Shown: in pieces, positions 3,014-58,389 of the stretch
How positions within the stretch are numbered: position 1 is the first letter of the stretch
How the letters are laid out: each line of letters begins with the position of its first letter
Assembly: GCA_035652395.1 (NCBI GenBank)
Contig: DASRDX010000013.1
Location: forward strand, 3,255 to 67,254
Reading direction: 5' to 3'
Origin: Minisyncoccota bacterium
Lineage (GTDB): Bacteria > Patescibacteriota > Minisyncoccia > Phycocordibacterales > CAJBRS01
DNA length: 64,000 nt
Translations under genes and position numbers: made by a program
The notes under the pieces: generated by a model
What the model was told of the DNA's origin: nothing
What the model saw: the letters and a program-made list of their open reading frames with translations, nothing else
Database searches by the model: none

Positions 3014-3042
3014 CAAAACCCCGCCGTTTGAAACAGCGGGGT
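3014..3042 (-). terminator. intrinsic terminator downstream of the tRNA array
   Basis: minus-strand hairpin CCCCGCTG-TTTCAAA-CGGCGGGG followed by TTTTGTAT. Confidence 0.55.
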
Positions 3043-3049
3043 CAGAAAT

Positions 3050-3128
3050 TGGTCGAGAATCAAGGATTTGAACCTTGGACCTCCTGCTTCCGAAGCAGGC
3101 GAGAACAACCAGGCTTCTCTAATTCTCG
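3050..3128 (-). tRNA. tRNA-Pro (anticodon CGG)
   Basis: cloverleaf on minus strand: T-arm CAAGG-TTCAAAT-CCTTG, acceptor CGAGAAT/ATTCTCG, encoded CCA, anticodon loop TTCGGAA. Confidence 0.7.
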
Positions 3129-3137
3129 ATTAAAAAT

Positions 3138-3225
3138 TGGTCGAATCAGCAGGACTCGAACCTGCAAGGCCGTTAGGCACTGGTTTCCAAAACCAGAGGG
3201 CTTCCATTTACCCGCCTATGACTCG
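3138..3225 (-). tRNA. tRNA, anticodon UGG (Pro-like) with a long variable arm
   Basis: T-arm GCAGG-TTCGAGT-CCTGC, acceptor CGAGTCA/TGATTCG, A73, CCA, anticodon loop TTTGGAA; 14-nt variable arm is atypical for Pro. Confidence 0.55.
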
Positions 3226-3228
3226 AAA

Positions 3229-3519
3229 TTATTGCATTAAAGGAACCCAATATGTAGTTCCCGACAAAACTATTTTCAAAAAACCAACTATATCGCGTGG
3301 ATTAGACGGCCCGTCGCCAGTTCCTTTCTGAGGAGCACGTACTGTCTGAATACCCCCATTACCTACACCCAACTGATGCAACAAAACTAACTGATTTCCA
3401 GACGAAGTTCCGACATAAAGCTGAGCTTCATCTGTTGCAAAATACAACTCTCCCGTTTGCAATATGGGCATATTTGCTTTAATGCCGCGCAAAACTTGAA
3501 TACCTACATTTCTAGCCAT
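3229..3519 (-). CDS. tail-fibre-like protein (paralog of 3519-4040)
   Basis: N-terminal motif IQVLRG.K...L.TGE.YFATD...LYVGTSSG shared with the next ORF. Confidence 0.45.
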   Translation of the reverse strand: MARNVGIQVLRGIKANMPILQTGELYFATDEAQLYVGTSSGNQLVLLHQLGVGNGGIQTVRAPQKGTGDGPSNPRDIVGFLKIVLSGTTYWVPLMQ

Positions 3520-4040
3520 TAGAAGCTACCGCAATCTATATTCGTTAGGCTTGAGCCTGCTCCAATCGAAGTCGGTAATTGAGTTTGAGCGAGTAAGCCT
3601 GAAATATCAGCAAATGAAGGTTGTGCTAAATGCTGAACACCGTTATTATCAATATATGTCACAAACTGATGAGTTACAGGTGCCGATAAACCCTGAATAG
3701 TCGTTCCCGATGTAACTCCTATGGCTGTCCAATTTACATTATTCGACGCTGGCTCGTCAGTTAAAATGTATGTACGATTGTTATCGGCTTGTAAACACAA
3801 ATCTCCGATAAGAACACCAGTTAGCGCCAACCTAGATGTTTGGTCGGCTGCCGTAAAAACTTTTACATCATTGGCTAATCTAGACCAAGCGGCAGGTATT
3901 CCAGTTCCGCTTCCAGTATCAACATAAATTTCATTAGTGTCTGTTGTCCACGCAAGTACACCCGCAAAACCCGTGGACGGCAAAGTTGACAAACTAGATT
4001 TCGTTCCTCGATAAAGCTGAATAGATACATTAAGACTCAT
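3519..4040 (-). CDS. tail-fibre-like protein (paralog)
   Basis: N-terminal motif IQLYRGTK...TG...TTDTNEIYVDTGSG; 173 aa. Confidence 0.45.
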   Translation of the reverse strand: MSLNVSIQLYRGTKSSLSTLPSTGFAGVLAWTTDTNEIYVDTGSGTGIPAAWSRLANDVKVFTAADQTSRLALTGVLIGDLCLQADNNRTYILTDEPASNNVNWTAIGVTSGTTIQGLSAPVTHQFVTYIDNNGVQHLAQPSFADISGLLAQTQLPTSIGAGSSLTNIDCGSF

Positions 4041-4246
4041 TAAAAAGTACCCGCATCAATTGAAGTTTCGGTTATGGCAGCCGCCGATATTTGAGTAGTT
4101 CCGTCAAAAAACGTAATTCTTGGAGTGTGTACTGTGCCTTTTCCATCAATTGAGAAAAGTATTTCTCCATTCCTATTTATCAAATGAAGAAAATCCTCGC
4201 CATGAGAAAGATACTTTCCCATTGATGCTTGTTTTGATATGTTCAT
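4040..4246 (-). CDS. hypothetical protein
   Basis: ORF trimmed to ATG at 4246 to avoid overlapping tRNA-Gln. Confidence 0.3.
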   Translation of the reverse strand: MNISKQASMGKYLSHGEDFLHLINRNGEILFSIDGKGTVHTPRITFFDGTTQISAAAITETSIDAGTF

Positions 4247-4265
4247 CTGCTTAAAACTCAAATAT

Positions 4266-4339
4266 GGTTGCGGCGCTTGGACTCGAACCAAGATGACTAG
4301 TTTCAGAGACTAGCATCCTACCAATTGAATGACATCGCA
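4266..4339 (-). tRNA. tRNA-Gln (anticodon CUG)
   Basis: T-arm CTTGG-TTCGAGT-CCAAG, anticodon stem CTAGT/ACTAG with loop CTCTGAA, CCA encoded. Confidence 0.65.
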
Positions 4340-4355
4340 ATAAAATTTCAAAATT

Positions 4356-4429
4356 TGGTTGCTTCGTCAGGACTCGAACCTGAATAACAAGTTTCAAAGA
4401 CTTGCGAATTGCCAATTATTCGACAAAGC
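4356..4429 (-). tRNA. tRNA-Gln (anticodon UUG)
   Basis: T-arm TCAGG-TTCGAGT-CCTGA, acceptor TGCTTTG/CGAAGCA, loop CTTTGAA. Confidence 0.7.
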
Positions 4430-4431
4430 AA

Positions 4432-4509
4432 TTGGAGCACAAGGAGGGAATCGAACCCTTCGTATATTCGTTTTGCAGACGAATGCCTTGCCACTTGGCT
4501 ACTCGTGCT
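4432..4509 (-). tRNA. tRNA-Cys (anticodon GCA)
   Basis: acceptor GCACGAG/CTTGTGC, T-loop TTCGATT, anticodon stem TTCGT/ACGAA with loop CTGCAAA. Confidence 0.65.
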
Positions 4510-4512
4510 TAA

Positions 4513-4559
4513 GTGTCACATATTTCACTGTAAAACGCTTATGGTAAAATATGTGACAC
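4513..4559. repeat. 11-bp perfect inverted repeat GTGTCACATAT / ATATGTGACAC (25-nt spacer)
   Basis: seen directly between tRNA-Cys and tRNA-Ser; spacer contains TGGTAAAAT (extended -10-like). Confidence 0.8.
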
Positions 4560-4566
4560 TATAAAA

Positions 4567-4652
4567 TGGCAGAGGATAACCGAGTCGAACGATTAACCTT
4601 TCGGTTAGCCTAGTTTTCAAGACTAGTTGGGAACCATCTCCCGCTACCCTCT
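4567..4652 (-). tRNA. tRNA-Ser (anticodon UGA)
   Basis: type II: acceptor AGAGGGT/ATCCTCT, G73, 3-bp D-stem, loop CTTGAAA, variable arm TAACC-GAAA-GGTTA. Confidence 0.75.
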
Positions 4653-4657
4653 AAAAT

Positions 4658-4744
4658 TGGCGGAGTGCGAAGGATTTGAACCTCCACAACCTTTCGGTCG
4701 CTTGTTTAGCAAACAAGTGCGGCTACCAATTTCGCCAGCACTCC
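4658..4744 (-). tRNA. tRNA-Ser (anticodon GCU)
   Basis: type II: acceptor GGAGTGC/GCACTCC, G73, loop TTGCTAA, long variable arm, T-loop TTCAAAT. Confidence 0.75.
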
Positions 4745-4751
4745 GTATAAT

Positions 4752-5080
4752 GTGGTGAACAATAGCCAGGATTCTGTATAACGGCCATCATCCATCTAAG
4801 CTGCCTACCCGGCGTTCTGCGTGCTCAACTCACTCCCGCCCTATTTGGCATTGCACTCAGAGGGAGTTTCTCGACTCCAATGATTCTAACTATCCGCCAA
4901 TAATTAGAATATCGAGGCTTACCCGTCCAATTACTCGGCCCGCAACTTCCACGGTCTGATGTTGAGATGTGTCCTGAACTTCCTCGGAATTTCGCCCCCT
5001 GTAATACGATGCTCAAGGTACGCCTTGACGACACCTTACGGTTTGAGGGAGCCACCGTTCCGCGATAGCCTAGTTCACCA
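4752..5080 (-). ncRNA. rnpB: RNase P RNA, bacterial type A-like
   Basis: minus-strand sequence contains GCCAAATAGGG, CCGGGTAGGCAGCTTAGATGGATGA and ACAGAATCCTGGCTATTG...TTCACCA; these are collinear with E. coli M1 RNA blocks GCCAAATAGGGG, CCGGGTAGGCTGCTTGAG, CTAGATGAATGA and ACAGAACCCGGCTTATCGG...TTTCACCT; P4-like GAGGAAGTTCAGGAC; P1 pairing GGTGAAC/GTTCACC. Confidence 0.75.
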
Positions 5081-5411
5081 AATTCAATTTATTCTTTACG
5101 GCTTTTCCAATAAGATATGTAGCCACAAGAAAAGAAACAATCAGTCCCAAGAATCCTAAAACCAATAAAACGTCTCCGGGACTTGCTATCGTATCTCCGA
5201 TTGAAATATAGTCACATAAAATCTTCAAATGACTGTATGTTGCCATTGAAACGTGCTCATTGTCAAGAAAAATTTCTTGATTCGTCAATTTTCCTACATA
5301 AACGGGCATCATACCGTTGTTTGCCGATATGGCGGCAACGTTTAATAAACCACCTAATATATAACTCACGATAGACACGAGAGCACAAAGCATTACTTTT
5401 AACGGCCTCAT
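5070..5411 (-). CDS. small membrane protein
   Basis: 113-aa ORF with two hydrophobic segments; its stop abuts the rnpB 5' end. Confidence 0.4.
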   Translation of the reverse strand: MRPLKVMLCALVSIVSYILGGLLNVAAISANNGMMPVYVGKLTNQEIFLDNEHVSMATYSHLKILCDYISIGDTIASPGDVLLVLGFLGLIVSFLVATYLIGKAVKNKLNLVN

Positions 5412-5427
5412 ATTTGTGCCTCGATTT

Positions 5428-5503
5428 TGGACGACTCGGCGGGACTCGAACCCGCATAAGAAGTTTAGGAAACTTCTGTCTTATCCGATTAAACGACAAA
5501 TCG
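5428..5503 (-). tRNA. tRNA-Arg (anticodon CCU)
   Basis: T-arm GCGGG-TTCGAGT-CCCGC, acceptor CGATTTG/CGAGTCG, loop TTCCTAA. Confidence 0.6.
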
Positions 5504-5581
5504 TGGAGGCCCCGGCGAGAATCGAACTCGCATACGCTGATTAGAAGTCAGCGGTCCTGTCCGTTGAACGACAGAGCCTTA
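5504..5581 (-). tRNA. tRNA-Arg (anticodon UCU)
   Basis: T-arm GCGAG-TTCGATT-CTCGC, acceptor GGCTCTG/CGGGGCC, loop CTTCTAA. Confidence 0.65.
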
Positions 5582-5593
5582 AAAACTTTTTGG

Positions 5594-5666
5594 CGAGACA
5601 TGAGGGACTTGAACCCCCACCCTACGGTTTTGGAGACCGATATGCTGCCACTAACACCTATGACTC
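5594..5666 (-). tRNA. tRNA-Trp (anticodon CCA)
   Basis: anticodon arm CGGT-CTCCAAA-ACCG identical to the canonical tRNA-Trp arm; T-loop TTCAAGT; one acceptor mismatch. Confidence 0.6.
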
Positions 5667-5676
5667 GCGTTAAACT

Positions 5677-5751
5677 TGGAGCGGTCGGCGGGACTCGAAC
5701 CCGTCTTCTTCAGCTTGGAAGGCTGAGGCACAACCTTTATACCACGCCCGC
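5677..5751 (-). tRNA. tRNA-Gly (anticodon UCC)
   Basis: T-loop TTCGAGT, anticodon stem TCAGC/GCTGA with loop CTTCCAA. Confidence 0.6.
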
Positions 5752-5874
5752 TCGAAAAATTATTTTCTTGTCGGCACGTTCCTTTTCCAGACAAAAAATA
5801 GCGACGTAGAAAGTCAGCGTTCGACGACATTGTAACAAAGTCAGCGATTGGCGACTCGAAAAATTATTTTCTTG
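5751..5874. repeat. 21-bp direct repeat CTCGAAAAATTATTTTCTTG (5751-5770 and 5855-5874)
   Basis: two identical copies bracket a 100-bp spacer immediately upstream of tRNA-Gly; a 10-mer AAAGTCAGCG is also duplicated inside. Confidence 0.8.
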
Positions 5875-6298
5875 AAAGCCTAGCAATCCAATTGTCGGTA
5901 TGTTTCTGTCTTTCCAACATACAGTTTACAGCGAACTCAAAATCCCCATAATTCACATAAGCAAAAGGATTATTATACTGTGAATCCTTGGCCATGTAAA
6001 CTTGCTTTCCATCGCGGCTCCAATCCCAAACATCGTTATGACTGCACTCATACCTGTCGGGAATCAAAAACTCGTCCCAATCGCCACTCGATAAAACTTT
6101 CTTAATGGCTTGGTTTTGAGTGCGACGAACGGCTCTCGCTGCTTGTGTTTTATCCCAACGAGCACTATTGGAGCCGCAAACAAAACTAGCATACGGCTTT
6201 CTATATGAACGACTCATCAGAGACCTCACGGTTAAATCTAATGAATACTCATATACTACAAAAATGGAGCGAAGTACGATAATCGAAATCGTACTCAA
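5864..6298 (-). CDS. hypothetical protein embedded in the tRNA array
   Basis: 144-aa ORF (alternative start MSRSYRK at 6217); no recognisable motifs. Confidence 0.4.
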   Translation of the reverse strand: MSTISIIVLRSIFVVYEYSLDLTVRSLMSRSYRKPYASFVCGSNSARWDKTQAARAVRRTQNQAIKKVLSSGDWDEFLIPDRYECSHNDVWDWSRDGKQVYMAKDSQYNNPFAYVNYGDFEFAVNCMLERQKHTDNWIARLSRK

Positions 6299-6344
6299 AC
6301 CTTGGCAAGGTTTTGTTCTGCCACTAAACTAACTTCGCTAAAAT

Positions 6345-6426
6345 TGGTTGCGGGGGAGGGAATCGAACCCACTTTGGACAAGCCACAAGGTTATGAGTCT
6401 TGTGTGCACCCGGAGCACATCCCCGC
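6345..6426 (-). tRNA. tRNA with CAU anticodon (Met/Ile2-like), atypical
   Basis: acceptor GCGGGGA, T-loop TTCGATT, anticodon loop CTCATAA closed by an A.C pair, 13-nt variable segment; irregular. Confidence 0.5.
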
Positions 6427-6432
6427 TTCAAT

Positions 6433-6507
6433 TGGTCGTTCGGGTTGGAATCGAACCAACCATGCACGCTTTATGAGAACGCCGCCTAGCCGATTAGCTT
6501 CCGAACG
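6433..6507 (-). tRNA. tRNA-Met/fMet/Ile2 (anticodon CAU)
   Basis: acceptor CGTTCGG/CCGAACG perfect, T-arm GTTGG-TTCGATT-CCAAC, loop CTCATAA. Confidence 0.65.
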
Positions 6508-6519
6508 AAATCATAAATT

Positions 6520-6605
6520 TGGTGCGCCTGACAGGACTCGAACCTGTACGCCCGAAGGCACCAGTTTCTAAGACTGGCGTGTCTGCCCAATTCCATCCAC
6601 AGACG
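6520..6605 (-). tRNA. tRNA-Leu (anticodon UAG)
   Basis: type II: acceptor GCGTCTG/CAGGCGC, A73, loop CTTAGAA, variable arm TGCCTTCGGGCGT. Confidence 0.75.
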
Positions 6606-6609
6606 CAAA

Positions 6610-6685
6610 ATGGAGGCGTAGAAGGGAGTCGAACCCTCGTTCTCAGCTTGAAAGGCTGATGTCCTGGCCATTAGACGACTTCGCC
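6610..6685 (-). tRNA. tRNA-Glu (anticodon UUC)
   Basis: T-arm GAGGG-TTCGACT-CCCTT, anticodon stem TCAGC/GCTGA with loop CTTTCAA. Confidence 0.65.
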
Positions 6686-6695
6686 ATTATCCAAT

Positions 6696-6769
6696 TGGTG
6701 ACCCTGAGCGGTACTGACCCGCTGTTCTTAGATTGAGAATCTAATGTCCTGCCTTTAGACGACAGGGCC
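6696..6769 (-). tRNA. tRNA-Glu (anticodon CUC)
   Basis: acceptor GGCCCTG/CAGGGTC, D-arm TCGTCTAAAGGCAGGAC (Glu-like), loop TTCTCAA; unusual T-loop GTCAGTA. Confidence 0.55.
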
Positions 6770-6770
6770 T

Positions 6771-6845
6771 TGGCGGTGCTACTGGGAATCGAACCCAGAC
6801 TTCAGCCGTGACAGGGCCGTGTCGTTACCAACTGACCCTAGCACC
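6771..6845 (-). tRNA. tRNA-Asp (anticodon GUC)
   Basis: acceptor GGTGCTA/TAGCACC perfect, T-arm CTGGG-TTCGATT-CCCAG, loop CTGTCAC. Confidence 0.7.
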
Positions 6846-6847
6846 GT

Positions 6848-6923
6848 TGGAGCTTCGTGAAAGAATCGAACTTTCACTTCACCCTTACCAAGGGCGCGTT
6901 CTACCATTGAACTAACAAAGCGT
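6848..6923 (-). tRNA. tRNA-Thr (anticodon GGU)
   Basis: acceptor GCTTTGT/ACGAAGC, D-arm GTTC-AATGGTA-GAAC, loop TTGGTAA. Confidence 0.7.
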
Positions 6924-6966
6924 ACCATGAAACTTTTATTTTGTCAACTAAAAACTTAGCGATTTT

Positions 6967-7040
6967 TGGAGCTTCGTCGTGGAATCGAACCACGGCTCGC
7001 GGTTTACGAAACCGCTGTCATGCCACTAGACCAACAAAGC
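6967..7040 (-). tRNA. tRNA-Thr (anticodon CGU)
   Basis: acceptor GCTTTGT/ACGAAGC, T-arm CGTGG-TTCGATT-CCACG, loop TTCGTAA. Confidence 0.7.
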
Positions 7041-7052
7041 AAACTTAAAAAT

Positions 7053-7127
7053 TGGAGCACAATGTTGGATTTGAACCAACTCCCGCCGTTTACAAAACGG
7101 CCATTCTACCAATTAAACTAATCGTGC
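7053..7127 (-). tRNA. tRNA-Thr (anticodon UGU)
   Basis: acceptor GCACGAT/ATTGTGC, T-arm GTTGG-TTCAAAT-CCAAC, loop TTTGTAA. Confidence 0.7.
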
Positions 7128-7160
7128 ATTATTTTACGACACTTTAAAAATTTCAAAATT

Positions 7161-7237
7161 TGGCTCCAGCCCTGGGACTCGAACCCAGACCTTCATGGTT
7201 AACAGCCAAGCGTCCTGCCAAATTGGACCAGACTGGA
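7161..7237 (-). tRNA. tRNA-Asn (anticodon GUU)
   Basis: acceptor TCCAGTC/GGCTGGA, D-arm GTCC-AATTTGGCA-GGAC, T-arm CTGGG-TTCGAGT-CCCAG, loop CTGTTAA. Confidence 0.65.
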
Positions 7238-7341
7238 ATAAAAAGCAAGGCAACAAGCGTTATAAGTCTTTTTTCACACTAGAAGAAGTATCTCATAACT
7301 ACGGCACTTGCTATTTCTCTGCACTGCTGCATTATAACTAT

Positions 7342-7416
7342 TGGAGGACCGCAAGGGATTTGAACCCTTAATTATGCGTTCGAAGCGCATTGGTTTATCC
7401 GTTAGCCTAACAGTCC
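7342..7416 (-). tRNA. tRNA-Arg (anticodon UCG)
   Basis: acceptor GGACTGT/GCGGTCC, T-arm AAGGG-TTCAAAT-CCCTT, anticodon stem ATGCG/CGCAT with loop CTTCGAA. Confidence 0.65.
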
Positions 7417-7423
7417 TAAAAAT

Positions 7424-7498
7424 TGGAAGGCCGTGCGGGAGTCGGACCCGCGTCTGCGGATTCGTAGTCCGCTGTCTTTTCCTCTAAACGAACAGCCT
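7424..7498 (-). tRNA. tRNA-Arg (anticodon ACG)
   Basis: acceptor AGGCTGT/ACGGCCT, T-arm GCGGG-TCCGACT-CCCGC, loop CTACGAA. Confidence 0.6.
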
Positions 7499-7500
7499 TT

Positions 7501-7576
7501 TGGTACGCCGTAATGGAATCGAACCATTCCTTCTGGTTTGTAGGACCAGCGCATACTACCAGTTTGCTAACAGCGT
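7501..7576 (-). tRNA. tRNA-Val (anticodon UAC)
   Basis: acceptor ACGCTGT/ACGGCGT, T-arm AATGG-TTCGATT-CCATT, loop CCTACAA (C33 is unusual). Confidence 0.55.
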
Positions 7577-7577
7577 A

Positions 7578-7653
7578 TGGTGGACGAAACAGGCTCTGCC
7601 CCTGCCGCCTCCGCATTGCAAGTGCGGCGCTCTCCTGAATGAGCTACTCGCCC
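7578..7653 (-). tRNA. tRNA-Ala (anticodon UGC) with non-canonical T-loop
   Basis: perfect 76-nt cloverleaf: acceptor GGGCGAG/TTCGTCC with G3:U70, D-arm GCTC-ATTCAGGA-GAGC, anticodon arm CCGCA-CTTGCAA-TGCGG, T-arm GCAGG-GGCAGAG-CCTGT, A73, CCA; no GTTCGA motif. Confidence 0.6.
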
Positions 7654-7762
7654 AAAATGAATCTCCTCTATAATAAGCTTGAGTCCCAAACAACAAGATT
7701 CGGACTCTCCACACCTAACACAAGAATACGCCCGTTTGTATTCCTGAGTGTAATCCCAAACT

Positions 7763-7836
7763 TGGTACTCCACCAAGGACTCGAACCTTGACGAGACGCT
7801 AATCAGGCATCCATGCTACCACTACATCAGCGGAGT
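7763..7836 (-). tRNA. tRNA-Ile (anticodon GAU)
   Basis: acceptor ACTCCGC/GTGGAGT, T-arm CAAGG-TTCGAGT-CCTTG, anticodon stem GATGC/GCGTC with loop CTGATTA. Confidence 0.65.
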
Positions 7837-7965
7837 ACGAAAAATTCAAGCCGATACTTTTTACGCCTCGGACTAATTGAACGACTTCCTCTCAACGGGC
7901 GCTGCGCGGTCTGCACACTAACTTTCTCAAAAAATATTTAATCAAGCAAACCCAACGCCAGAATA

Positions 7966-8280
7966 TTACTGGCCAAGGAAACGGGCGTTGGTTACAGGGT
8001 TTGGGACTGGCTGTGTCAGCGTAAAAGTCAAAAACACCGGACTTGATTTCTGAGCCAGATTATCAACCGCATAAATAGCGACCGCCTTACCGCCTGGGTT
8101 CGCGTATTGAAGAACCAACGGCGCGGCATCGGTAGGAGTAGTTTTTACGTCCGCTCCGTCAGGTCTCGGCGCTGTTCCTACAACATTATTTGACAAATCC
8201 GCATCCCAAACTTCAAAATGGTCAAAAACAATTTGCGGGTCGGATGCGGTCCAATCCCACGCTATTTTAGCATTTAACAT
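7966..8280 (-). CDS. hypothetical protein embedded in the tRNA array
   Basis: 104-aa ORF with RBS GAGGGAAAC; hairpin CCAACGCC...GGCGTTGG plus T-run downstream. Confidence 0.4.
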   Translation of the reverse strand: MLNAKIAWDWTASDPQIVFDHFEVWDADLSNNVVGTAPRPDGADVKTTPTDAAPLVLQYANPGGKAVAIYAVDNLAQKSSPVFLTFTLTQPVPNPVTNARFLGQ

Positions 8281-8335
8281 GTTTCCCTCAGCCCTTTTGT
8301 AAAGGGGACTTTTTAAAAATGACTGCGAAACAAAT

Positions 8336-8427
8336 TGGTGGAGAAGGCAGGATTCGAACCTACAGTATCCACATTGGGATGCCGGGGGTTACAGCCCGGT
8401 AGGGCGACCTGTTGCCCCAACCTCTCC
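8336..8427 (-). tRNA. tRNA-Tyr (anticodon GUA)
   Basis: type II, 92 nt: acceptor GGAGAGG/CTTCTCC, A73, T-arm GTAGG-TTCGAAT-CCTGC, loop CTGTAAC. Confidence 0.65.
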
Positions 8428-8498
8428 ATTAAACTTGCTTTACGTAAATTTTATAAACCAAAGTTCCATTCGGAATATAACGGCTCGCGCTTAAAATT

Positions 8499-8578
8499 TG
8501 GTCGCCCTGGGAAGATTTGGATACTTCCAACCCCGACGCTTAAAAGGCGTGTGCTCTTACCAATTGAGCTACAAGGCG
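8499..8578 (-). tRNA. tRNA-Lys (anticodon UUU)
   Basis: acceptor CGCCTTG/CAGGGCG, D-arm GCTC-AATTGGTAA-GAGC, loop CTTTTAA; enlarged T-loop. Confidence 0.55.
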
Positions 8579-8584
8579 AAAAAT

Positions 8585-8659
8585 TGGTAGTCCGCGACGG
8601 ATTCAAACCGTCACCTATCTCCTTAAGAGGGAGTAATGCCGTCATAACACCTGCGGACT
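8585..8659 (-). tRNA. tRNA-Lys (anticodon CUU)
   Basis: acceptor AGTCCGC/GCGGACT perfect, T-arm GACGG-TTTGAAT-CCGTC, loop CTCTTAA. Confidence 0.65.
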
Positions 8660-8710
8660 AAAAATTTTGTTGGGAACAACTCTCCGTTTGTTCCTTCTAT
8701 CACACAAAAT

Positions 8711-8799
8711 TGGTACTCGATGAAGGAATCGAACCTTCCAGCAAGGGTAATCTGCCCCGACGCTTTATAAGAGCGTGCTGCGGACCGCCGCTATCGAGT
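8711..8799 (-). tRNA. type II tRNA with anticodon UAU (atypical; identity unclear)
   Basis: acceptor ACTCGAT/ATCGAGT perfect, A73, T-arm GAAGG-TTCGATT-CCTTC, perfect anticodon stem ACGCT/AGCGT with loop CTTATAA, about 21-nt variable arm. Confidence 0.55.
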
Positions 8800-8803
8800 A
8801 AAC

Positions 8804-9040
8804 TTAAATTTGCTGTACAGGAGCGGGCTTACCGCGCAAAATTCCTTTCTGAATCATCTGCTCCGGCGTAAAAACATTTGGGTCAAATCTATTTTCATGG
8901 CCCAATAAATACTTCGGAGTTAAAGTGTGCCTGTCCGATTCGGGCAACTTACCCGACCTCATTTGCCTGGGTATATTGTAATGCGGCATATTGCCTCTTG
9001 ATAATCGAATTGGTGCGCTGCGAGAGAATCGAACTCCCAC
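8804..9040 (-). CDS. hypothetical protein
   Basis: 78-aa ORF between tRNAs; start uncertain (internal ATG at 8989). Confidence 0.25.
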   Translation of the reverse strand: MGVRFSRSAPIRLSRGNMPHYNIPRQMRSGKLPESDRHTLTPKYLLGHENRFDPNVFTPEQMIQKGILRGKPAPVQQI

Positions 9041-9098
9041 GCCGTTTTAAGGCCGAAGATTTTAAGTCTCCTGCGTCTGCCTGTTCCGCCAGCAGCGC
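9011..9098 (-). tRNA. tRNA-Leu (anticodon UAA)
   Basis: type II: acceptor GCGCTGC/GCAGCGC perfect, A73, T-arm GGGAG-TTCGATT-CTCTC, loop CTTAAAA. Confidence 0.75.
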
Positions 9099-9104
9099 AA
9101 AATT

Positions 9105-9191
9105 TGGTGCCTTTGGAGGGAATCGAACCCCCACGGGACTGTGCCCACCGCGTTTTGAGTGCGGCGCGTCTGCCTGTTCCACCACAAAAGC
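9105..9191 (-). tRNA. tRNA-Leu (anticodon CAA)
   Basis: type II: acceptor GCTTTTG/CAAAGGC, A73, T-arm GGGGG-TTCGATT-CCCTC, loop CTCAAAA. Confidence 0.65.
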
Positions 9192-9192
9192 A

Positions 9193-9266
9193 TGGCCCCT
9201 ATCCGTGGAATCGAACCACGACTACCTGTTCTTCAGACAGGGGTGCGGCCACTACACCAAACAGGG
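9193..9266 (-). tRNA. tRNA-Phe (anticodon GAA)
   Basis: acceptor CCCTGTT/GATAGGG, T-arm CGTGG-TTCGATT-CCACG, anticodon stem CCTGT/ACAGG with loop CTGAAGA. Confidence 0.65.
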
Positions 9267-9336
9267 ACAGAAACTTTGACTTTCTGAGAATCTAGAATGG
9301 CCCGCTTCATGCAGCAAGCCGAATACGGGCGACTGC

Positions 9337-9564
9337 TTAAAGCTTTCTTCGGGCCTTTCTTCCACCATATAATTCCGCATGGCCTCCCCAAACACTTTCG
9401 CGTGCCTCATGTGCCCCAAGGCCCGTTTCCAAAAGACGGCAGTACTTACGAAGGGCAACAATTGCTACTGCCGCGCTCTCTGGGTCATCCATGATTTCCG
9501 ACTCTAACGCCGATGCTTCTTGACGTTCTTCAAAATCAAGCTCAGCTACGGATTCCGTAATCAT
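9337..9564 (-). CDS. hypothetical acidic protein
   Basis: 75-aa ORF with RBS AAGGGG; preceded by a 26-aa ORF (9574-9651) with RBS AAGGAAG. Confidence 0.3.
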   Translation of the reverse strand: MITESVAELDFEERQEASALESEIMDDPESAAVAIVALRKYCRLLETGLGAHEARESVWGGHAELYGGRKARRKL

Positions 9565-9895
9565 CATTGGCCCCTTAACTCTTTTCCTTCAAAAGGCGAA
9601 CCAACTCCGAGTCCGACGTTGGAACGTGCTCGAATTGTTTACGGTCTGCCATGCCTTAAACTTCCTTAACGCTGTAATTATCAGGCTCGAACTTGCGGCC
9701 CTCAACCTGAGATTTTGCTTGCTGCAAAGCGGCTTGAGGGGTTTCGGCCTCGGCTTCAATCTTTATCTTCTGAGTCAAGGTAATTTTATACGTTTTCAAT
9801 TTTTTATCCTTTCAGCCTTGAGGGCCGTGGGTTGAAGGTAAGGAGTAGTAGAAAACCTCACGGCCCTCACTCTGCGCTTTACTTTACCACGCAAC

Positions 9896-9937
9896 CCGAA
9901 AACTTGTCAAGAACTATTTTCGGGTTTTTTCCCGCTG
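9896..9937 (+). terminator. intrinsic terminator-like hairpin
   Basis: ACCCGAAAA-loop-TTTTCGGGT followed by TTTTTT; a second hairpin CCCGCTGGCGCGGG and a T10 run lie just downstream. Confidence 0.4.
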
Positions 9938-10040
9938 GCGCGGGCTTAAACCGGGCATGTTTTTTTTTTAATTGTAGCCTCGACTACGCCCAGCATAACT
10001 CTTCGATAAAAAATCTACAACAACTCTTAAAATTTGTCAA

Positions 10041-10116
10041 CAGTTTTTTTTGGGGTGAAGAGTGGGAATCGAACCCTACACTGACTCTTTCACAGAGAGC
10101 CATGCTGCCGTTACAT
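10041..10116 (-). tRNA. tRNA-His-like (anticodon GUG), degenerate
   Basis: T-loop GGG-TTCGATT-CCC, anticodon stem GCTCT/AGAGT with loop CTGTGAA, C at discriminator as expected for His; weak T-stem and acceptor pairing. Confidence 0.45.
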
Positions 10117-10137
10117 CATCCACACCTCGGTTTAATT

Positions 10138-10314
10138 AAATGTGCTGCTTAATTTTATTTATAACGCTTTTCGCGTCGGCTATAAGACCCGATTCAAATT
10201 TTGAAACAACTTCACGTATTTTTGAAAGCTTGGCCGCGTTCTTGATACGACCCACGCCAAAACCGACAGCAAAACCTACCACAACTAGAACAAATTTTAG
10301 CATGCTCATGTTCT
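10138..10314 (-). CDS. small membrane-anchored protein
   Basis: 58-aa ORF MSMLKFVLVVVGFAVGFGVG..., not in the supplied track because it is under 60 aa. Confidence 0.35.
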
Positions 10315-10349
10315 CCTGTCAACCAATTTTTCAAAACTCAATTGCTTTC

Positions 10350-10776: not shown

Positions 10777-11061
10777 TTACTCTCCGAAAAACTTTCTTGT
10801 ATCAAGTCCCAAATGTTTGAACGCTTTTATTACTTGCTGCCGAAACTCAAGGTCTTTGGCCGATTTTTTAAAATCAATAAACGACCTCAAATCTTTTTCC
10901 ATATCGGTATAAGCCGTTGGGTCTATATCGGGTTCGGTTAAGGCGGCTAAATCGGCTTGGTCGGACGCCGAATCAGTTGTGTCTTTGTCCTCTTCTTTTA
11001 AAAGATTGGCTTCTTTCATCATACCCCAACTTGGACGTGTTTTATTTATTATGTCGGTCAT
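10777..11061 (-). CDS. hypothetical acidic protein
   Basis: 94-aa ORF tightly packed with neighbours. Confidence 0.4.
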   Translation of the reverse strand: MTDIINKTRPSWGMMKEANLLKEEDKDTTDSASDQADLAALTEPDIDPTAYTDMEKDLRSFIDFKKSAKDLEFRQQVIKAFKHLGLDTRKFFGE

Positions 11062-11704
11062 TAAGTTTCCTTTGAATTTGTATTAATTCCAAAGCAGGCG
11101 ACAACAAACACATCTCATCAAATGTAAGGTTGTGTATGTGTCTAATTTCACGGCAGCGTTGGCATGCCGCAATAGCATTATAGGCCATTCCGACTTCCGA
11201 ATCAATCCAATCTACGGAACAGCCTTCGGGTTCTAGCTCGGCTTTACAATAATAACAGCCGTCCTTTAAAAGTTGCTCATAAAAGTTAATGTGCCAAAGC
11301 AAGTCAGTTTTAGGGGTATGCTTTTCTATGAGGACTGACTTTAATAGCCTATGCTTATACCCTATAGAACCCGTCCGAAAGGAATTAGACTTTTTAATTG
11401 TGGTCCTTAAAGTCCTAAGTTTAAAGTCAACCTGCTTCTGACGTTCGGCCAATCGGTCTAATTTCTCTAAATGCCTTTTCAAATTAAGTTCGGCCCGCAA
11501 ACAGCCGCAACTCTTCTTTCGGCCCGATACAAGTTTATCTTCACGGGCCAATACAAGTTTATTCTGACCTGTCTCATTTGAGCAATCACAGTCGCAAAGC
11601 CAATACCGCTTATTCTTCTCACTATGAGAAAACTGTCTCACTTTGAGACGCCCATAGGTGTTGCCAATTAAAGTCTGTGTCATAATGAGAACTGTTTGTC
11701 TCAA
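11042..11704 (-). CDS. HNH homing-endonuclease-like protein
   Basis: N-terminal YGRLKV...W.CDCDC...L.SG...SCGC block typical of phage HNH endonucleases, plus a C-terminal Cys/His cluster. Confidence 0.55.
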   Translation of the reverse strand: MRQTVLIMTQTLIGNTYGRLKVRQFSHSEKNKRYWLCDCDCSNETGQNKLVLAREDKLVSGRKKSCGCLRAELNLKRHLEKLDRLAERQKQVDFKLRTLRTTIKKSNSFRTGSIGYKHRLLKSVLIEKHTPKTDLLWHINFYEQLLKDGCYYCKAELEPEGCSVDWIDSEVGMAYNAIAACQRCREIRHIHNLTFDEMCLLSPALELIQIQRKLNDRHNK

Positions 11705-33291: not shown

Positions 33292-36200
33292 ATGACTGTT
33301 GAAATGAGTAAATTCGCAAGCGATATAATGAAGCAAAAATACAGCCATCTTAATAAAGAAGGCGAGGTGGAAAATTGGCAAAACATTGCTTATCGAGTGA
33401 GCAAAAAAGTTTTACAAGCTGTTCGTGCGCCTCATAGCCAAATAGAGGCTACTAGGAAGATAATTGAAAACCGAAAGTTTATTCCCGGCGGCAGGTATTT
33501 GGCTAGTACTGGCAGACTCTTTCACCAAGTGAATAATTGCGGCGCAGGAGAAACTAGGGTAGTTACCAAAGAAGGAGTCAAGACCCTTAAAGAATTGTCA
33601 GGAACTAAACCTACTCTTATGACCACAAATGGGACATGGGTAGAGGCAGACGTGAAAAGTTTTGGAAAGCAGCCTTTACTTAGAGTGCGTATTCGCAGAG
33701 ACAAGTATGAAAAAGATTTGTACATGACCCCCGAACATTCTTGGAGAATAGCCAAGTATTATAGCAATGGTAGGTGTGCCCACAAGGTAGAAGTATTGAC
33801 AAAAGACCTGAAACCAGGAGATATGTTGTGGCAGGTTTTCGGATACGGAGCGAAAAGAACGCCGATTAGTATTGATGGAATTAGGCACGGCATTGTTTTC
33901 GGGAGTAGCGGTTCTGAAGTCGTGTTATGTGGAAAGAAGAACCTTGAGATTTTGAAGTTTTTCAAGGGTTATAAATTAAAAAAACACGAATCGGGAGTGA
34001 AAGTTTCGGGACTCCCAAAAACTTATAAGGATTTACCGTCTCTTCAAAATGATAGGTCATATCTTTTAGGCTGGCTGTGTGGATACTTTGCCGCAGACGG
34101 ATGCGTGTCTAAAGACGGGAAAATTGAATTAGCTTCTACAAATCTAAAAAATTTGGAGCGTGTTAGAGAAATTTGTTACGTTATCGGCATCGGCACTAAA
34201 AATATTAGGAAGCAGGTAAGAATTTCTAATCTAACTAAAAAGACATCTGTTATTTATTATTTACCATTTATACCTAGTACACTTTCAAAAAAATTCTTTT
34301 TAATTTCTAAGCACAGGGAAAATTTCAAAATTAAAAAGACCCCAATTTGGTCTGTTGTTTCAGTAAATAAAACCAACAGATTTGAAGAAGTGTTCTGTGC
34401 AATTGTTCCTGAAACTCACGAGTTTGTGCTAGAAGATAACATCCTTACGGGTAATTGTTTCTTGTTCAGGGCTGAAGATTCGCGCGAAGGTTGGGCGGAT
34501 TTAATGCACAAAATTACCTTAGCTCTAATGACAGGCGGAGGAATCGGAGTTGACTATTCCGATGTGCGGGAAGAAGGACGTATAATCAGAAAAACAGGCG
34601 GTAAGTCAACAGGCCCGTTGGCTCTTATGCAAATGGTCAATGAAGCTGGGCGATTTATTATGCAAGGCGGAAGCCGACGTTCGGCTATTTGGGCTGGACT
34701 TAATTGGAAACATCCCGACATACAGAAGTTTATAAGAATGAAAGATTGGTCAGAAGTTGTAAAGTTGGAAAAAACTAAAAATTTCAATTTTCCGGCTGTC
34801 TTGGATATGACCAATATATCAGTTCTTTTGGATGATGAGTTTTTTGAGGCTTACCATAATGAAAAACACGAACAACATGTTTTGGCAACGTCGGTATATT
34901 GGTCAGCAATCAGGCACATGCTTGAAACGGGCGAGCCTGGATTTTCAATTGACGTCGGAAAAAATTCCCGCGAAACGCTTCGTAACGCGCCAATATGCGG
35001 GGATGTTTGGGTTCTGACTTCCGAAGGATATAAAGAAGTAAAAGCCATAATAAATAAGCCAGTGACAATATGGACAGGAAAGCGGTGGGCGTTGAATGTC
35101 GTGTTTCAAAAAACAAAGTCCGATGCTCCCATTGTTAAAGTAAAAATGACTGGCGGGCGATATATTCGTTGCGATGAAAGCCATGAATTTCTAACGGGCA
35201 GCGAAGGATTTTTTAGGGTTCCTGCCAAGGACCTCAAACCCGGAGATGTTTTGTACACAGCCTTGAACTATCCCGAACAAAAAACTAAGTTTCATTTAGA
35301 TTCTTATATTTTGGGTTATATGTATGGAGACGGAACATTTAATAAAAATGGAACGGCAGAGATAACTTTTTGCACTGAAAAGTCCATAAAATGTGCTAAA
35401 CCCATGTCGCGGTCTAGTATTTTTTCGAGCATGAACCGCAACTCCAAAGGATATTTAAGAGCTTATTTTAAGAAAAGTGATTTTTGGTCGGGCAGAAACA
35501 AATCAACATTTCCAAAGGATGTGTACGCTTATGACCAACATAAGGCATTAAGTTTCGTGGCTGGTTTGTTTGATTCTGATGGAAATTATGAATCTAAACA
35601 GAATCGTATTCGATTAGCATCTAAGCACGAAAGTTTTTTGAGGGGCGTAGCTAGATTATTGGAACAATTTGGAATTTTTGCTGGAGTTACAAAAGCGGGC
35701 ATTTCTACTTTTGGCAAGTCTCAAGGCTATCAGCTTGTGGTAATGTCTGAGTACAATGATATGTTTTCTAAATTGATTCCCACAATTAGAGTAAGGCCGA
35801 GAAAACAGAAACAGAGCAACCGCCACTCTGTTATTAAAGTAGTGAGTGTCGAATCGGATGGAGTGGAGGATGTATATTGCGCCGATGTTCGTGTGGATGA
35901 ACACAGTTTTCAAGCCGAGGGTGTTATAATTTCCAATTGTACGGAGATTACTAGCTCTGACGATTCCGACGTTTGTAATTTAGGTTCAATTAACATGGCT
36001 AGAATTGAATCGCTAGAGGAAATGGAGCGTGTAGTTGAACTTGGTTCGGCATTTCTCTTGGCGGGAACTGTGTATTCCGACGTTCCATTTGCTGCTATAG
36101 ATAAAGTGCGCAGCAAGAATCGTCGTCTTGGCCTAGGACTTATGGGGCTGCACGAATGGCTCCTAAAGAAAGGAAAGAAGTACGGGCCGGATGAAGAATT

Positions 36201-47586: not shown

Positions 47587-47603
47587 TACCGGAGAAATTC
47601 TAA

Positions 47604-49975: not shown

Positions 49976-49982
49976 AAAAAAA

Positions 49983-54636: not shown

Positions 54637-55127
54637 AAAACACATTAAAAGTGGGTGACGAAGTTTACGTGACACGAAAGGCCAAAAGCTATGAAAATGG
54701 TTGGAACAATGTTTGGGTTCCGAGCGCGATGAATTGTTACGTAGGTAAGATTGGGCGCGTTAAAGCAATTTATGAAGATATAGGAATCGAGCTAGATTTC
54801 GGAGATGGCATGCCTGAATATTTGTTCCCCTCTTTTGTTTTAAAGAAAATTTCTCCAATTCAGGAAGCCAGAGACATTGCTAAAAAAATATCTAAACGAA
54901 ACGGCTTTGTTACAATTGATGAAGTCCAATCGGCCATGAAAGAGACTAAATTCGGGCCTATAACGAAGGGAGCGGCTGGAGCGGTTTTTAATACGCCCGA
55001 ATTTATAAATACGGGAGTGACGGTCAAGAGCGTCAGACCCGAAAATCGGGGCAGGAGAATTTCTATTTGGAAGCTTAAAACAAGGGATAGGCATGGAAAA
55101 AAGACAGCTTTACGTAGTGGTGGCTAA
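54633..55127 (+). CDS. hypothetical protein
   Basis: start at MKNTLKV (RBS GGAAAAC). Confidence 0.4.
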   Translation: MKNTLKVGDEVYVTRKAKSYENGWNNVWVPSAMNCYVGKIGRVKAIYEDIGIELDFGDGMPEYLFPSFVLKKISPIQEARDIAKKISKRNGFVTIDEVQSAMKETKFGPITKGAAGAVFNTPEFINTGVTVKSVRPENRGRRISIWKLKTRDRHGKKTALRSGG

Positions 55128-55452
55128 TTCAATAGAAACGGATTTCGGGAAGATAAAGCAACCCAAAGGACGGCAAACGGCTCAGGCCGCGCATGCCGCT
55201 GCGGCTTTTTGTTTTGAATATGGTAAATTATTAAATGCTTATACTACAACAATAATAATTTTACAAGCAAGAGATTCGGCAGAATTGCAGCATATTATGC
55301 GTTTAGCCAAAACAAAAAAGCTGCGTCACGTCGCATTTTATGACGAAAATTTATCCGCCTACGGCGACGGACAGTTTTTAACTGCCGTGGCCATATGCGG
55401 ATTGCCAAAACAGGTTCAGGGTGTCATCGATTATTTGCCGCTTTGGAGTTAA
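55093..55452 (+). CDS. PTH2-family peptidyl-tRNA hydrolase-like protein
   Basis: LYVVVANSIETDFGKIKQPKGRQTAQAAHAAAA parallels the PTH2 VVR.DL.MGKGKIAAQCAHAA motif. Confidence 0.55.
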   Translation: MEKRQLYVVVANSIETDFGKIKQPKGRQTAQAAHAAAAFCFEYGKLLNAYTTTIIILQARDSAELQHIMRLAKTKKLRHVAFYDENLSAYGDGQFLTAVAICGLPKQVQGVIDYLPLWS

Positions 55453-58383: not shown

Positions 58384-58389
58384 TCTGGG

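Follow-up and report, generated by a model that had tools for sequence, protein, structure and literature searches.

Clusters of transfer RNA (tRNA) genes are known from several phages. The cluster of T4 comprises eight tRNAs and two stable RNAs together with the homing endonuclease SegB, and T5 and jumbo or huge phages also carry tRNA clusters. T4 pre-tRNAs are among the classic substrates of ribonuclease P (RNase P). RNase P is generally considered a ribozyme common to all cells, and phages are assumed to rely on that of the host. The specificity domain of the bacterial enzymes reads the tRNA elbow, and a GGU in the P16/P15 loop of type-A enzymes, such as M1 RNA, pairs with the tRNA CCA. In type T of Pyrobaculum and in the small RNAs of Mycoplasma, RNase P RNA is minimal, its specificity domain being reduced or absent. 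The present analysis concerned a stretch of 64,000 nucleotides (nt) of contig DASRDX010000013.1 (positions 3,255 to 67,254, assembly GCA_035652395.1), referred to as the window. It carries a minus-strand array of tRNA genes of an uncultured phage with a genome of approximately 94 kb, and a diverged RNase P RNA gene (rnpB) is embedded in this array. The array is real. Large phage tRNA arrays are already known, and the array alone is an ordinary, unusually complete example of this feature; the embedded RNase P RNA is the new part. The region of about 7.1 kb probably constitutes a self-contained module for tRNA supply and maturation.

RNase P RNA gene

The RNase P RNA was located at the following position:

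4748..5081, minus strand: RNase P RNA, type-A-derived, 334 nt (RF00010, 78 bits, E 1e-22, full model length)

The original prediction had called rnpB within the array, and the call was borne out by this match and by covariation over 11 phage homologues. RNase P was not reported at the Rfam gathering thresholds and was found under E-value reporting. Ten relatives scored 72.7-92.8 bits against RF00010, with E-values of 1e-20 to 1e-27. Routine annotation would miss this family of phage rnpB genes, because the scores fall below the Rfam gathering threshold.

The structure was analysed with 11 distinct phage sequences using MAFFT, RNAalifold and pair counting. The counted elements were P1, P2, P3, the P4 pseudoknot, P5/7, P8, P9, P10-12, P15, P16 and P17. 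Pairing was found in 98.5% of cells, compared with 32-39% when the partners were slid by 1-3 columns. Changes on both sides were present in 39 of 67 pairs, and the observed values were reached in none of 500 shuffles. The P4 pseudoknot held eight pairs, which were 100% paired in the 11 sequences and included two compensatory pairs, and its bulged U was invariant. The invariant sequences were GAGGAA-R-UUCAGG (P4, 5' strand including the bulged U), ...CCUG... (P4, 3' strand), AAAUAGG and CGGGU. The latter was located between P16 and P15 and contains the GGU of J16/15. P13/P14 were absent, and the model positions from J11/12 through P14 were largely deleted in the Rfam alignment. The RNA thus fell short of a full specificity domain (P7-P14), with only P7-P12 backed by covariation. 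P18 was absent in the window copy and present only in three relatives. The window copy also held a 68-nt insertion in P3.

A 27-nt pattern representing the phage P4 signature had no match in 185,579 bacterial and archaeal species genomes and was present on 12 metagenome contigs. Because the signature occurred in none of these species genomes, rnpB is judged to be a phage lineage of RNase P RNA and not a recent host capture. Homologues were present on IMG/VR and JGI metagenome contigs, always within large tRNA arrays. In the window, 3 nt separate the end of the RNase P RNA from tRNA-Ser(GCU). A distance of 3-9 nt to the next tRNA was observed in the related loci L001, L047, L064, L068 and L009, and in L029 and L062 the RNase P RNA starts 2 nt after tRNA-Cys.

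When IMG/VR was scanned for the canonical P4 motif, 119 stretches were obtained, 67 of which had a 3' P4 motif 160-420 nt downstream. Among these 67, 29 loci comprised at least ten tRNAs (10-36) in the same locus. RF00010 was confirmed in six of seven tested loci with 118-266 bits, all above the gathering threshold, in arrays of 13-36 tRNAs. One of the confirmed RNAs measured only 207 nt, and another was encoded on a contig of 463 kb. In INPHARED, such sequences occurred only in three unannotated gut 'Bacteriophage sp.' records and in no isolate, and neither the window array (megablast) nor its rnpB (blastn) had a match there. Searches of open-access papers and bioRxiv preprints turned up no RNase P RNA described from a phage or other virus. 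Provisionally, phage RNase P RNA appears to be undescribed yet widespread in the tRNA arrays of IMG/VR.

Of these RNase P RNA loci within tRNA arrays, L085, L094, L099, L114, L133, L153 and about 25 further candidates lay on IMG/VR contigs that are unrelated and 7 kb to 463 kb long. Short RNase P RNAs were those of L153 (207 nt) and L114 (269 nt). In L099, a match resembling transfer-messenger RNA adjoined the RNase P RNA.

tRNA gene array

In the ARAGORN search, 32 tRNA genes were recovered within 3050-10125, without exception on the minus strand, and the rest of the window had none. With the Rfam tRNA model, 29 genes passed the gathering score of 29 bits. Three genes were found with Rfam only, Glu-CUC (6696-6769), Ala-UGC (7578-7653) and Lys-UUU (8499-8578), which ARAGORN missed because their T-loops are non-canonical. 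Ser-UGA and Lys-CUU were called by ARAGORN only, and Pro-UGG was just below the gathering score with 28.4 bits. The union of both searches comprised 35 tRNA genes with 34 distinct anticodons (CAU twice) over about 7.1 kb. Many clustered same-strand tRNA genes in a phage genome, as in a phage tRNA gene array, were thus present. The original prediction had described a large minus-strand array of 34 tRNA genes; the array stands, but the number is now 35, with 32 genes from ARAGORN and three from Rfam. Its statement that all 20 amino acids are covered was confirmed by the anticodons. Its isoacceptor numbers were correct as well, with four for Arg, three each for Thr and Leu, two each for Ser, Gln, Glu, Lys and Pro, and two CAU tRNAs. 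Further pairs were detected for Gly and Ile (GAU and UAU). The genes were:

3050..3128, minus strand: tRNA-Pro(CGG), 79 nt, enlarged D arm (ARAGORN; Rfam 57.7 bits)
3138..3225, minus strand: tRNA-Pro(UGG), 88 nt, extra variable arm (ARAGORN; Rfam 28.4 bits; fold)
4265..4339, minus strand: tRNA-Gln(CUG) (ARAGORN; Rfam 52.2 bits)
4356..4430, minus strand: tRNA-Gln(UUG) (ARAGORN; Rfam 58.6 bits)
4433..4508, minus strand: tRNA-Cys(GCA) (ARAGORN; Rfam 55.8 bits)
4567..4652, minus strand: tRNA-Ser(UGA), D arm like that of selenocysteine (Sec) tRNA (ARAGORN only; fold)
4658..4744, minus strand: tRNA-Ser(GCU), 5' end 3 nt after the RNase P RNA (ARAGORN; Rfam 51.6 bits)
5428..5503, minus strand: tRNA-Arg(CCU), 0-nt spacer to Arg(UCU) (ARAGORN; Rfam 52.8 bits)
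5504..5578, minus strand: tRNA-Arg(UCU) (ARAGORN; Rfam 52.9 bits)
5591..5666, minus strand: tRNA-Trp(CCA) (ARAGORN; Rfam 44.5 bits)
5677..5751, minus strand: tRNA-Gly(UCC) (ARAGORN; Rfam 45.8 bits)
6265..6338, minus strand: tRNA-Gly(GCC) (ARAGORN; Rfam 60.7 bits)
6345..6427, minus strand: tRNA(CAU), 83 nt, extra arm (ARAGORN; Sec model 28.6 bits; fold)
6433..6507, minus strand: tRNA(CAU), class I, C1-G72, elongator Met or Ile2 (ARAGORN; Rfam 40.4 bits)
6520..6606, minus strand: tRNA-Leu(UAG) (ARAGORN; Rfam 43.8 bits)
6611..6685, minus strand: tRNA-Glu(UUC) (ARAGORN; Rfam 60.6 bits)
6696..6769, minus strand: tRNA-Glu(CUC), T-loop GUCAGUA (Rfam 48.8 bits only)
6771..6845, minus strand: tRNA-Asp(GUC) (ARAGORN; Rfam 52.8 bits)
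6848..6921, minus strand: tRNA-Thr(GGU) (ARAGORN; Rfam 65.1 bits)
6967..7040, minus strand: tRNA-Thr(CGU) (ARAGORN; Rfam 57.5 bits)
7053..7127, minus strand: tRNA-Thr(UGU) (ARAGORN; Rfam 62.2 bits)
7161..7237, minus strand: tRNA-Asn(GUU) (ARAGORN; Rfam 57 bits)
7342..7416, minus strand: tRNA-Arg(UCG) (ARAGORN; Rfam 52.7 bits)
7424..7498, minus strand: tRNA-Arg(ACG) (ARAGORN; Rfam 52 bits)
7501..7576, minus strand: tRNA-Val(UAC) (ARAGORN; Rfam 52.4 bits)
7578..7653, minus strand: tRNA-Ala(UGC), G3:U70, T-loop GGCAGAG (Rfam 44.3 bits only)
7763..7836, minus strand: tRNA-Ile(GAU) (ARAGORN; Rfam 46.1 bits)
8336..8427, minus strand: tRNA-Tyr(GUA), class II (ARAGORN '(gtaa)'; fold)
8499..8578, minus strand: tRNA-Lys(UUU), 9-nt T-loop (Rfam 48 bits only)
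8585..8659, minus strand: tRNA-Lys(CUU) (ARAGORN only; cloverleaf in minimum-energy fold)
8711..8799, minus strand: tRNA(UAU), 89 nt, for AUA (ARAGORN; Sec model 39.8 bits)
9011..9098, minus strand: tRNA-Leu(UAA) (ARAGORN; Rfam 46.5 bits)
9105..9191, minus strand: tRNA-Leu(CAA) (ARAGORN; Rfam 42.7 bits)
9193..9266, minus strand: tRNA-Phe(GAA) (ARAGORN; Rfam 46.9 bits)
10051..10125, minus strand: tRNA-His(GUG), bacterial-type G-1 opposite C73, encoded, first array gene (ARAGORN; Rfam 40.4 bits)

The 3' CCA was encoded in 35 of 35 tRNA genes. Between successive RNA genes, 20 of 34 gaps were 0-12 nt long, one of them 0 nt. Under standard wobble rules, with U34 wobble in the four-codon boxes, all 61 sense codons would be readable by the set. 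Seven tRNAs with C34 for G-ending codons were present (CUG, CUC, CUU, CAA, CGG, CGU and CCU). For Ala, coverage depends on the tRNA with the odd T-loop, and for Tyr on the tRNA whose anticodon loop has 8 nt or whose anticodon stem is bulged. Two gaps of about 105 nt within the array, 7654-7762 and 7238-7341 (minus strand), had no tRNA or Rfam call. The former holds the T-arm-like sequence GAGAGUCCGAAUCUUGU and may be a tRNA remnant.

Selection was evaluated in 32 isoacceptor families from the window and eight related phage loci, in which orthologues showed a mean identity of 0.53-0.74. Canonical pairs made up 96.2% of stem cells and compensatory change was found in 483 of 665 pairs, a count somewhat favoured by structures derived from the same alignments, with a signal far beyond chance. 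Since the stems still pair among orthologues that are only 53-74% identical, the array tRNAs are interpreted as working genes under structural selection and not as relics. A predominance of pseudogenes, which the original prediction had named as speaking against it, was thus not observed. The reading of a mostly decayed array, with pseudo-tRNAs hitch-hiking in the genome, could point to the roughly nine atypical genes described below. It is highly improbable in view of the conserved stems, the 29 genes passing the gathering score and the CCA present in every gene.

Atypical tRNAs and reading of AUA

About nine tRNAs deviated from the standard shape, Pro-UGG, CAU (6345-6427), UAU, Ser-UGA, Tyr, Glu-CUC, Ala-UGC, Lys-UUU and Lys-CUU. 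Extra variable arms were present in Pro-UGG (88 nt), CAU (83 nt) and UAU (89 nt), and Sec-like D arms with 4-nt loops in Ser-UGA and the UAU tRNA. The D arm of Ser-UGA comprised a 5-bp stem and a 4-nt loop, and the tRNA can be drawn as 7/5 or 8/4. Its orthologue in L059/L064 reached 45 bits on the tRNA-Sec model and was 7/5 in L064 by hand reading. In the Tyr tRNA (8336-8427), the anticodon loop is CUGUAACC and has 8 nt, unless the anticodon stem is drawn with a bulged C; its relatives have 7-nt loops. Across the phage family, long variable arms occurred sporadically in normally class I tRNAs (Pro-UGG, CAU, UAU and Asn-GUU), with short arms in other members. Asn-GUU was extra-armed in L009, L064, L069 and L204. 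The array of one relative held a tRNA with a CUA anticodon, the amber-suppressor type (L069, 2090-2164, minus strand).

The CAU tRNA at 6345-6427 had an A1xA72 mismatch followed by G2-C71, C3-G70 and G4-C69, and A73. Nucleotide 1 is the only difference between its acceptor stem and that of E. coli tRNA-fMet. The anticodon stem was CAAGA/CCUUG, lacking the three G-C pairs of the initiator. Relatives of this tRNA showed U1-A72 and a GGG/CCC run shifted by one pair, and the orthologues in L009, L047 and L068 were 87-88 nt long. From these features, it could be a phage initiator-like tRNA.

The tRNA(UAU) formed a 7/5 cloverleaf with A73, a Sec-like D arm and a long extra arm. In the window, L001, L009, L064 and L204, this form is conserved and shows compensatory changes; an ordinary form of 73-75 nt was found in L047 and L068. 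A UAU tRNA for AUA was present in every relative examined. Assignment as allo-tRNA or tRNA-Sec was ruled out by the 7/5 arrangement, A73 and the wrong anticodon. Allo-tRNAs are 8/4 or 9/3, whereas the tRNA was 7/5 in the window, L001, L009 and L064. On the tRNA-Sec model (RF01852), the best score was 39.8 bits against a gathering score of 47, and the anticodon was UAU and not UCA.

Recoding was assessed with the UvrD helicase aligned with 114 family homologues. At 18 ATA sites, the residues were 53% I, 19% V and 7.5% L, and at ATT/ATC sites 64% I, 14% V and 9% L. In the same alignment, Leu sites held 76% L and Ser sites 58% S. Recoding of AUA to Leu or Ser was ruled out by the ATA spectrum of I > V > L. 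Because this spectrum matches the ATT/ATC sites and differs from the Leu and Ser sites, AUA is predicted to be read as Ile, and the identity of tRNA(UAU) is most likely Ile.

Transcription signals and proposed maturation

The following predicted transcription signals flank the array or lie within it:

3017..3043, minus strand: intrinsic terminator closing the array, 12-bp stem with 7 G-C pairs and T-run (sequence)
7128..7156, minus strand: internal promoter-like TTGAAA-17-AATAAT (consensus)
9881..9910, minus strand: promoter-like TTGACA-18-TAAAGT with TG (consensus)
10012..10040, minus strand: promoter-like TTGACA-17-TAGATT (consensus)
10294..10322, minus strand: promoter-like TTGACA-17-TAAAAT with TG, 11/12 matches, upstream of the array (consensus)

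A terminator had been predicted behind the array, and a strong one was found directly after the last tRNA. The array would be transcribed as long precursors from the putative promoters at about 10.3, 10.0 and 9.9 kb to this terminator. RNase P would cut at the 5' end of each tRNA and thereby dice the precursor. Because 20 of the 34 gaps are 0-12 nt and CCA is encoded, each cut would bring the preceding tRNA close to its mature 3' end, with a few bases left. The RNase P RNA, whose 3' end is 3 nt from tRNA-Ser(GCU), would be freed by these cuts as well. The phage RNA would use the retained catalytic core, P1-P5, P15-P17, P4 with the bulged U and the GGU for the tRNA CCA. Its partner would presumably be the host RnpA, since no RnpA was found in the 74 kb examined, or it may act without protein.

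The 334-nt RNA may be a catalytically active RNase P RNA peculiar to phages, with its specificity domain trimmed, a tentative reading which we place just short of probable. It would mature the 35 tRNAs of the phage, including shapes with a non-canonical elbow, would release itself from the same precursor and would be one of a widespread viral class, with arrays on contigs from about 60 kb to more than 460 kb. Several points weigh against the proposed module as a whole. The RF00010 score of 78 bits compares with a gathering score of 100. Much of the specificity domain is missing, so that catalytic competence is presumed. No RnpA-like protein was found in the window or the 10 kb beyond its start, using PF00825 against window open reading frames (ORFs) of at least 75 amino acids (aa) and the precomputed Pfam matches of L084; about 20 kb of the genome lie outside these 74 kb. 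The sigma-70-like promoters are consensus matches only. The T-loops of Glu-CUC, Ala-UGC and Lys-UUU lack the T54/A58 pair and those of their orthologues are canonical, so that these three tRNAs may be poor performers. No canonical initiator tRNA was present among the 35 array genes. The host, probably a soil member of the Acidobacteriota, was assigned from one mobile gene (TnpB).

The low Rfam score, the loss of P13/P14 and P18 with the 68-nt insertion in P3, and the lack of a phage RnpA in the sequence examined are also what a rival reading draws on. According to this, the rnpB-like RNA is not a working RNase P and instead titrates RnpA, redirects host tRNA processing or is a stable RNA with another role. 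It is rather improbable, as the invariant elements were exactly those of the catalytic core, namely AAAUAGG, CGGGU in J16/15 and both P4 strands including the bulged U. The CCA-binding GGU would be superfluous in an RnpA decoy, and the gene was always located among its presumed substrates.

Codon usage and purpose of the array

Genes of the phage had a G+C content at third codon positions (GC3) of 0.39. AUA accounted for 35% of Ile codons, and AGA, UUA/UUG and GGA were preferred. The original prediction had offered codon-usage compensation as one role of the array. The low GC3, the heavy use of AUA, AGA, UUA/UUG and GGA and the G+C content of 53-64% around the TnpB relatives in Acidobacteria agreed with it, but compensation alone does not account for the completeness of the set, the seven C34 tRNAs and the ribozyme. 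In its strict form, this reading takes compensation of codon bias as the sole purpose and the RNase P RNA as a passenger taken up with host tRNA genes. The dedicated UAU tRNA for AUA that is kept in every relative examined also fits it. The strict form is unlikely, because the set is complete and not selective, and a passenger RNA would neither hold 98.5% pairing with 39 compensatory pairs over 11 diverged lineages nor carry a P4 sequence that was found in no bacterial genome searched. Replacement of, or independence from, the host tRNA system fits better than topping up rare codons, because the complete set includes seven C34 tRNAs that a G+C-rich host should supply, as well as a processing ribozyme. 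With the module, the A/T-rich phage (43% G+C) could express its proteins in a host rich in G+C. Translation would also continue if tRNAs or tRNA processing of the host run short late in infection.

A further reading is counter-defence, in which the array replaces or shields tRNAs cut by anticodon nucleases of the host (PrrC, RloC, VapC, PARIS, Septu, retron), the odd shapes are escape variants and the HNH-like gene upstream of the array spreads or amplifies the locus like SegB in T-even phages. The completeness of the set and this HNH-like gene are in line with it. The same applies to the non-standard extra and D arms, which recur family-wide in Ile-UAU, CAU, Pro-UGG, Asn and Ser-UGA. A precedent has been published, in which SegB drives amplification of a tRNA locus against Septu (PMC13096335). 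However, the anticodon loops of Lys-UUU and Lys-CUU were ordinary, nothing in the array was specific to defence evasion and the need for an RNase P RNA is left unexplained. Counter-defence, the alternative role offered by the original prediction, is considered rather improbable as the main purpose.

Protein-coding genes in and around the array

The array span held at least ten ORFs. Among them were the four that the original prediction had listed (5070-5411, 5864-6298, 7966-8280 and 8804-9040). The ORFs and two further genes discussed here were:

3229-3519, 3519-4040 and 4040-4246, minus strand: three ORFs splitting the array, tail-fibre-like (weak Mtd_N match)
5070..5411, minus strand: ORF, DUF5317 membrane protein (PF17248, E 2e-10)
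5864..6217, minus strand: ORF, 117-aa basic protein (phrog_20038)
7966..8280, minus strand: ORF, 104 aa, no family match (also predicted as a gene on a different contig of this phage)
8804..8992, minus strand: ORF of about 62 aa, no family match (ORF call)
9337-9567 (76 aa) and 9656-9799 (47 aa), minus strand: small ORFs between tRNA-His and tRNA-Phe (ORF calls)
11042..11704, minus strand: HNH-endonuclease-like ORF (phrog_374, E 2e-14, residues 9-79)
55093..55452, plus strand: PTH2-like peptidyl-tRNA hydrolase (PF01981, 24.7 bits, cut-off 23)

In searches of Pfam, PHROG and NCBIfam, only the DUF5317 and phrog_20038 ORFs of the array gave family matches. The DUF5317 gene was located between tRNA-Arg(CCU) and the RNase P RNA, with its last codons overlapping the 5' end of the latter. 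L064 has no DUF5317 gene at that place, where only 8 nt are present, and a search for related loci based on DUF5317 returned nothing.

Small basic proteins of the same family as the 117-aa protein occur within phage tRNA arrays or next to them in several lineages (P0121-P0176; L204, L205), with the pattern MSRSYRKPY...DK..A.R..RR.QN...DWDEF..P..YEC..NDVWGWSRDG. The family had no Pfam entry, an AlphaFold predicted local distance difference test (pLDDT) value of 70 and no Foldseek match in the PDB. With tblastn, the family was detected in the loci L001, L047/L067 and L068 and not in L009 or L064. Because the latter two loci have none, the protein is evidently not an obligate partner of rnpB.

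An HNH endonuclease gene had been placed before the array. An HNH-like ORF does exist, but it lies 0.9 kb upstream, outside the coordinates given, and its support was from PHROG only, with no Pfam or NCBIfam match. The PTH2-like hydrolase that had been linked to the array also exists, with PF01981 just above its cut-off. Its link to the array is weak, as the gene is located 45 kb away on the other strand and reached only 17.6 bits on the NCBIfam equivalog model, compared with a cut-off of 126.

Phage family, genome context and host

The window had a G+C content of 43%. It encodes PolA, a primase-polymerase, an intein-containing ribonucleotide reductase, helicases, ThyX, GroES, a GH108 endolysin and TnpB, among others. 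The large terminase and a portal of the SU10 type were found beyond the window start. An identical helicase protein was present on at least 24 public contigs with lengths up to 95 kb. More than 120 helicase homologues with at least 58% identity were located on contigs of about 100 kb. Judged by these homologues, the phage is a member of a large uncultured family. Related phages were located via the small in-array protein and the RNase P RNA motif. The nearest relative was L064, a contig of 100.8 kb, whose tRNA array is colinear with that of the window.

57406-59811, plus strand: integrase-family ORF followed by TnpB (Cas12f-like TNB domain; TnpB 83% identical to the copy in an Acidobacteria metagenome-assembled genome)

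The TnpB gene had a G+C content of 50%. Relatives of TnpB, with 83% and 66% identity, were found only on contigs of metagenome-assembled genomes of Acidobacteria, with flanks of 53-64% G+C. The match serves as a lead to the host. An intein carrying a LAGLIDADG homing endonuclease splits the large subunit of the ribonucleotide reductase (33292-36801, plus strand). A block of sugar-modification genes (45500-50000, plus strand) comprised a galactosyltransferase, a GT11 fucosyltransferase-like ORF, other glycosyltransferase-like ORFs and an epimerase/dehydratase fused to an FkbM methyltransferase.

Comparison with known systems

Data from soil and Acidobacteria are rich in tRNAs of the allo-tRNA(UAU) group (Mukai et al. 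2017, PMC5389517), and published species of this group were inactive in translation tests (PMC5389517). The phage tRNA(UAU) resembles allo-tRNAs and a phage (8/4) tRNA-Ser from that study in the soil/Acidobacteria context, the UAU anticodon, the long variable arm and the Sec-like D arm with a 4-nt loop. Unlike allo-tRNAs (8/4 or 9/3), it is 7/5; it has A73, and AUA sites in the phage's proteins behave as Ile sites. The extra-armed tRNA(UAU) and tRNA(CAU) occur here in a translational context, which is relevant to the question why UAU allo-tRNAs are so abundant in soil metagenomes.

With the clusters of T4, T5 and jumbo or huge phages, the array shares same-strand tRNA genes on a genome of lytic type, polycistronic precursors that would be matured by RNase P, interspersed small ORFs and a putative gene of the homing-endonuclease type. 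It differs from them in its completeness, with 35 genes and 34 anticodons for all 20 amino acids on a genome that measures only about 94 kb, in encoding CCA everywhere and in having its own RNase P RNA gene.

Theta ribozymes, which resemble those of hepatitis delta virus, are located beside tRNAs of gut phages and are small, cis-acting and proposed to cut 3' trailers (PMC10879173). In both cases, a phage-encoded ribozyme would serve the maturation of the phage's own tRNAs with less reliance on host RNases. In contrast to theta ribozymes, the RNA described here would be a trans-acting one of the RNase P type for 5' leaders. If true, it would extend the 'translation autonomy' of viruses from tRNAs to tRNA maturation.

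Compared with E. coli M1 RNA and the type A model RF00010, the phage RNAs retain P1, P2, P3, the P4 pseudoknot with the bulged U, P5/P7, P8, P9, P10-12 and P15-P17. The GGU of J16/15 and the conserved regions AAAUAGG and ACARAA...CCUG are shared as well. The phage RNAs differ from type A in scoring 72-93 bits (<100), in lacking P13/P14 and, in most members, P18, and in being phage-encoded. Their 5' strand of P4 is GAGGAARUUCAGG instead of GAGGAAAGUCCGG, with compensating changes on the 3' side. Like type T of Pyrobaculum and the RNAs of Mycoplasma, they keep the catalytic domain and have trimmed helices of the specificity domain. Those RNAs are, however, cellular and of archaeal or type-B ancestry, whereas the phage RNA is type-A-derived and keeps P7-P12. 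The phage versions would represent natural minimal type-A ribozymes, without P13/P14 or P18 and in some cases of only about 207 nt, useful for probing the role of the specificity domain.

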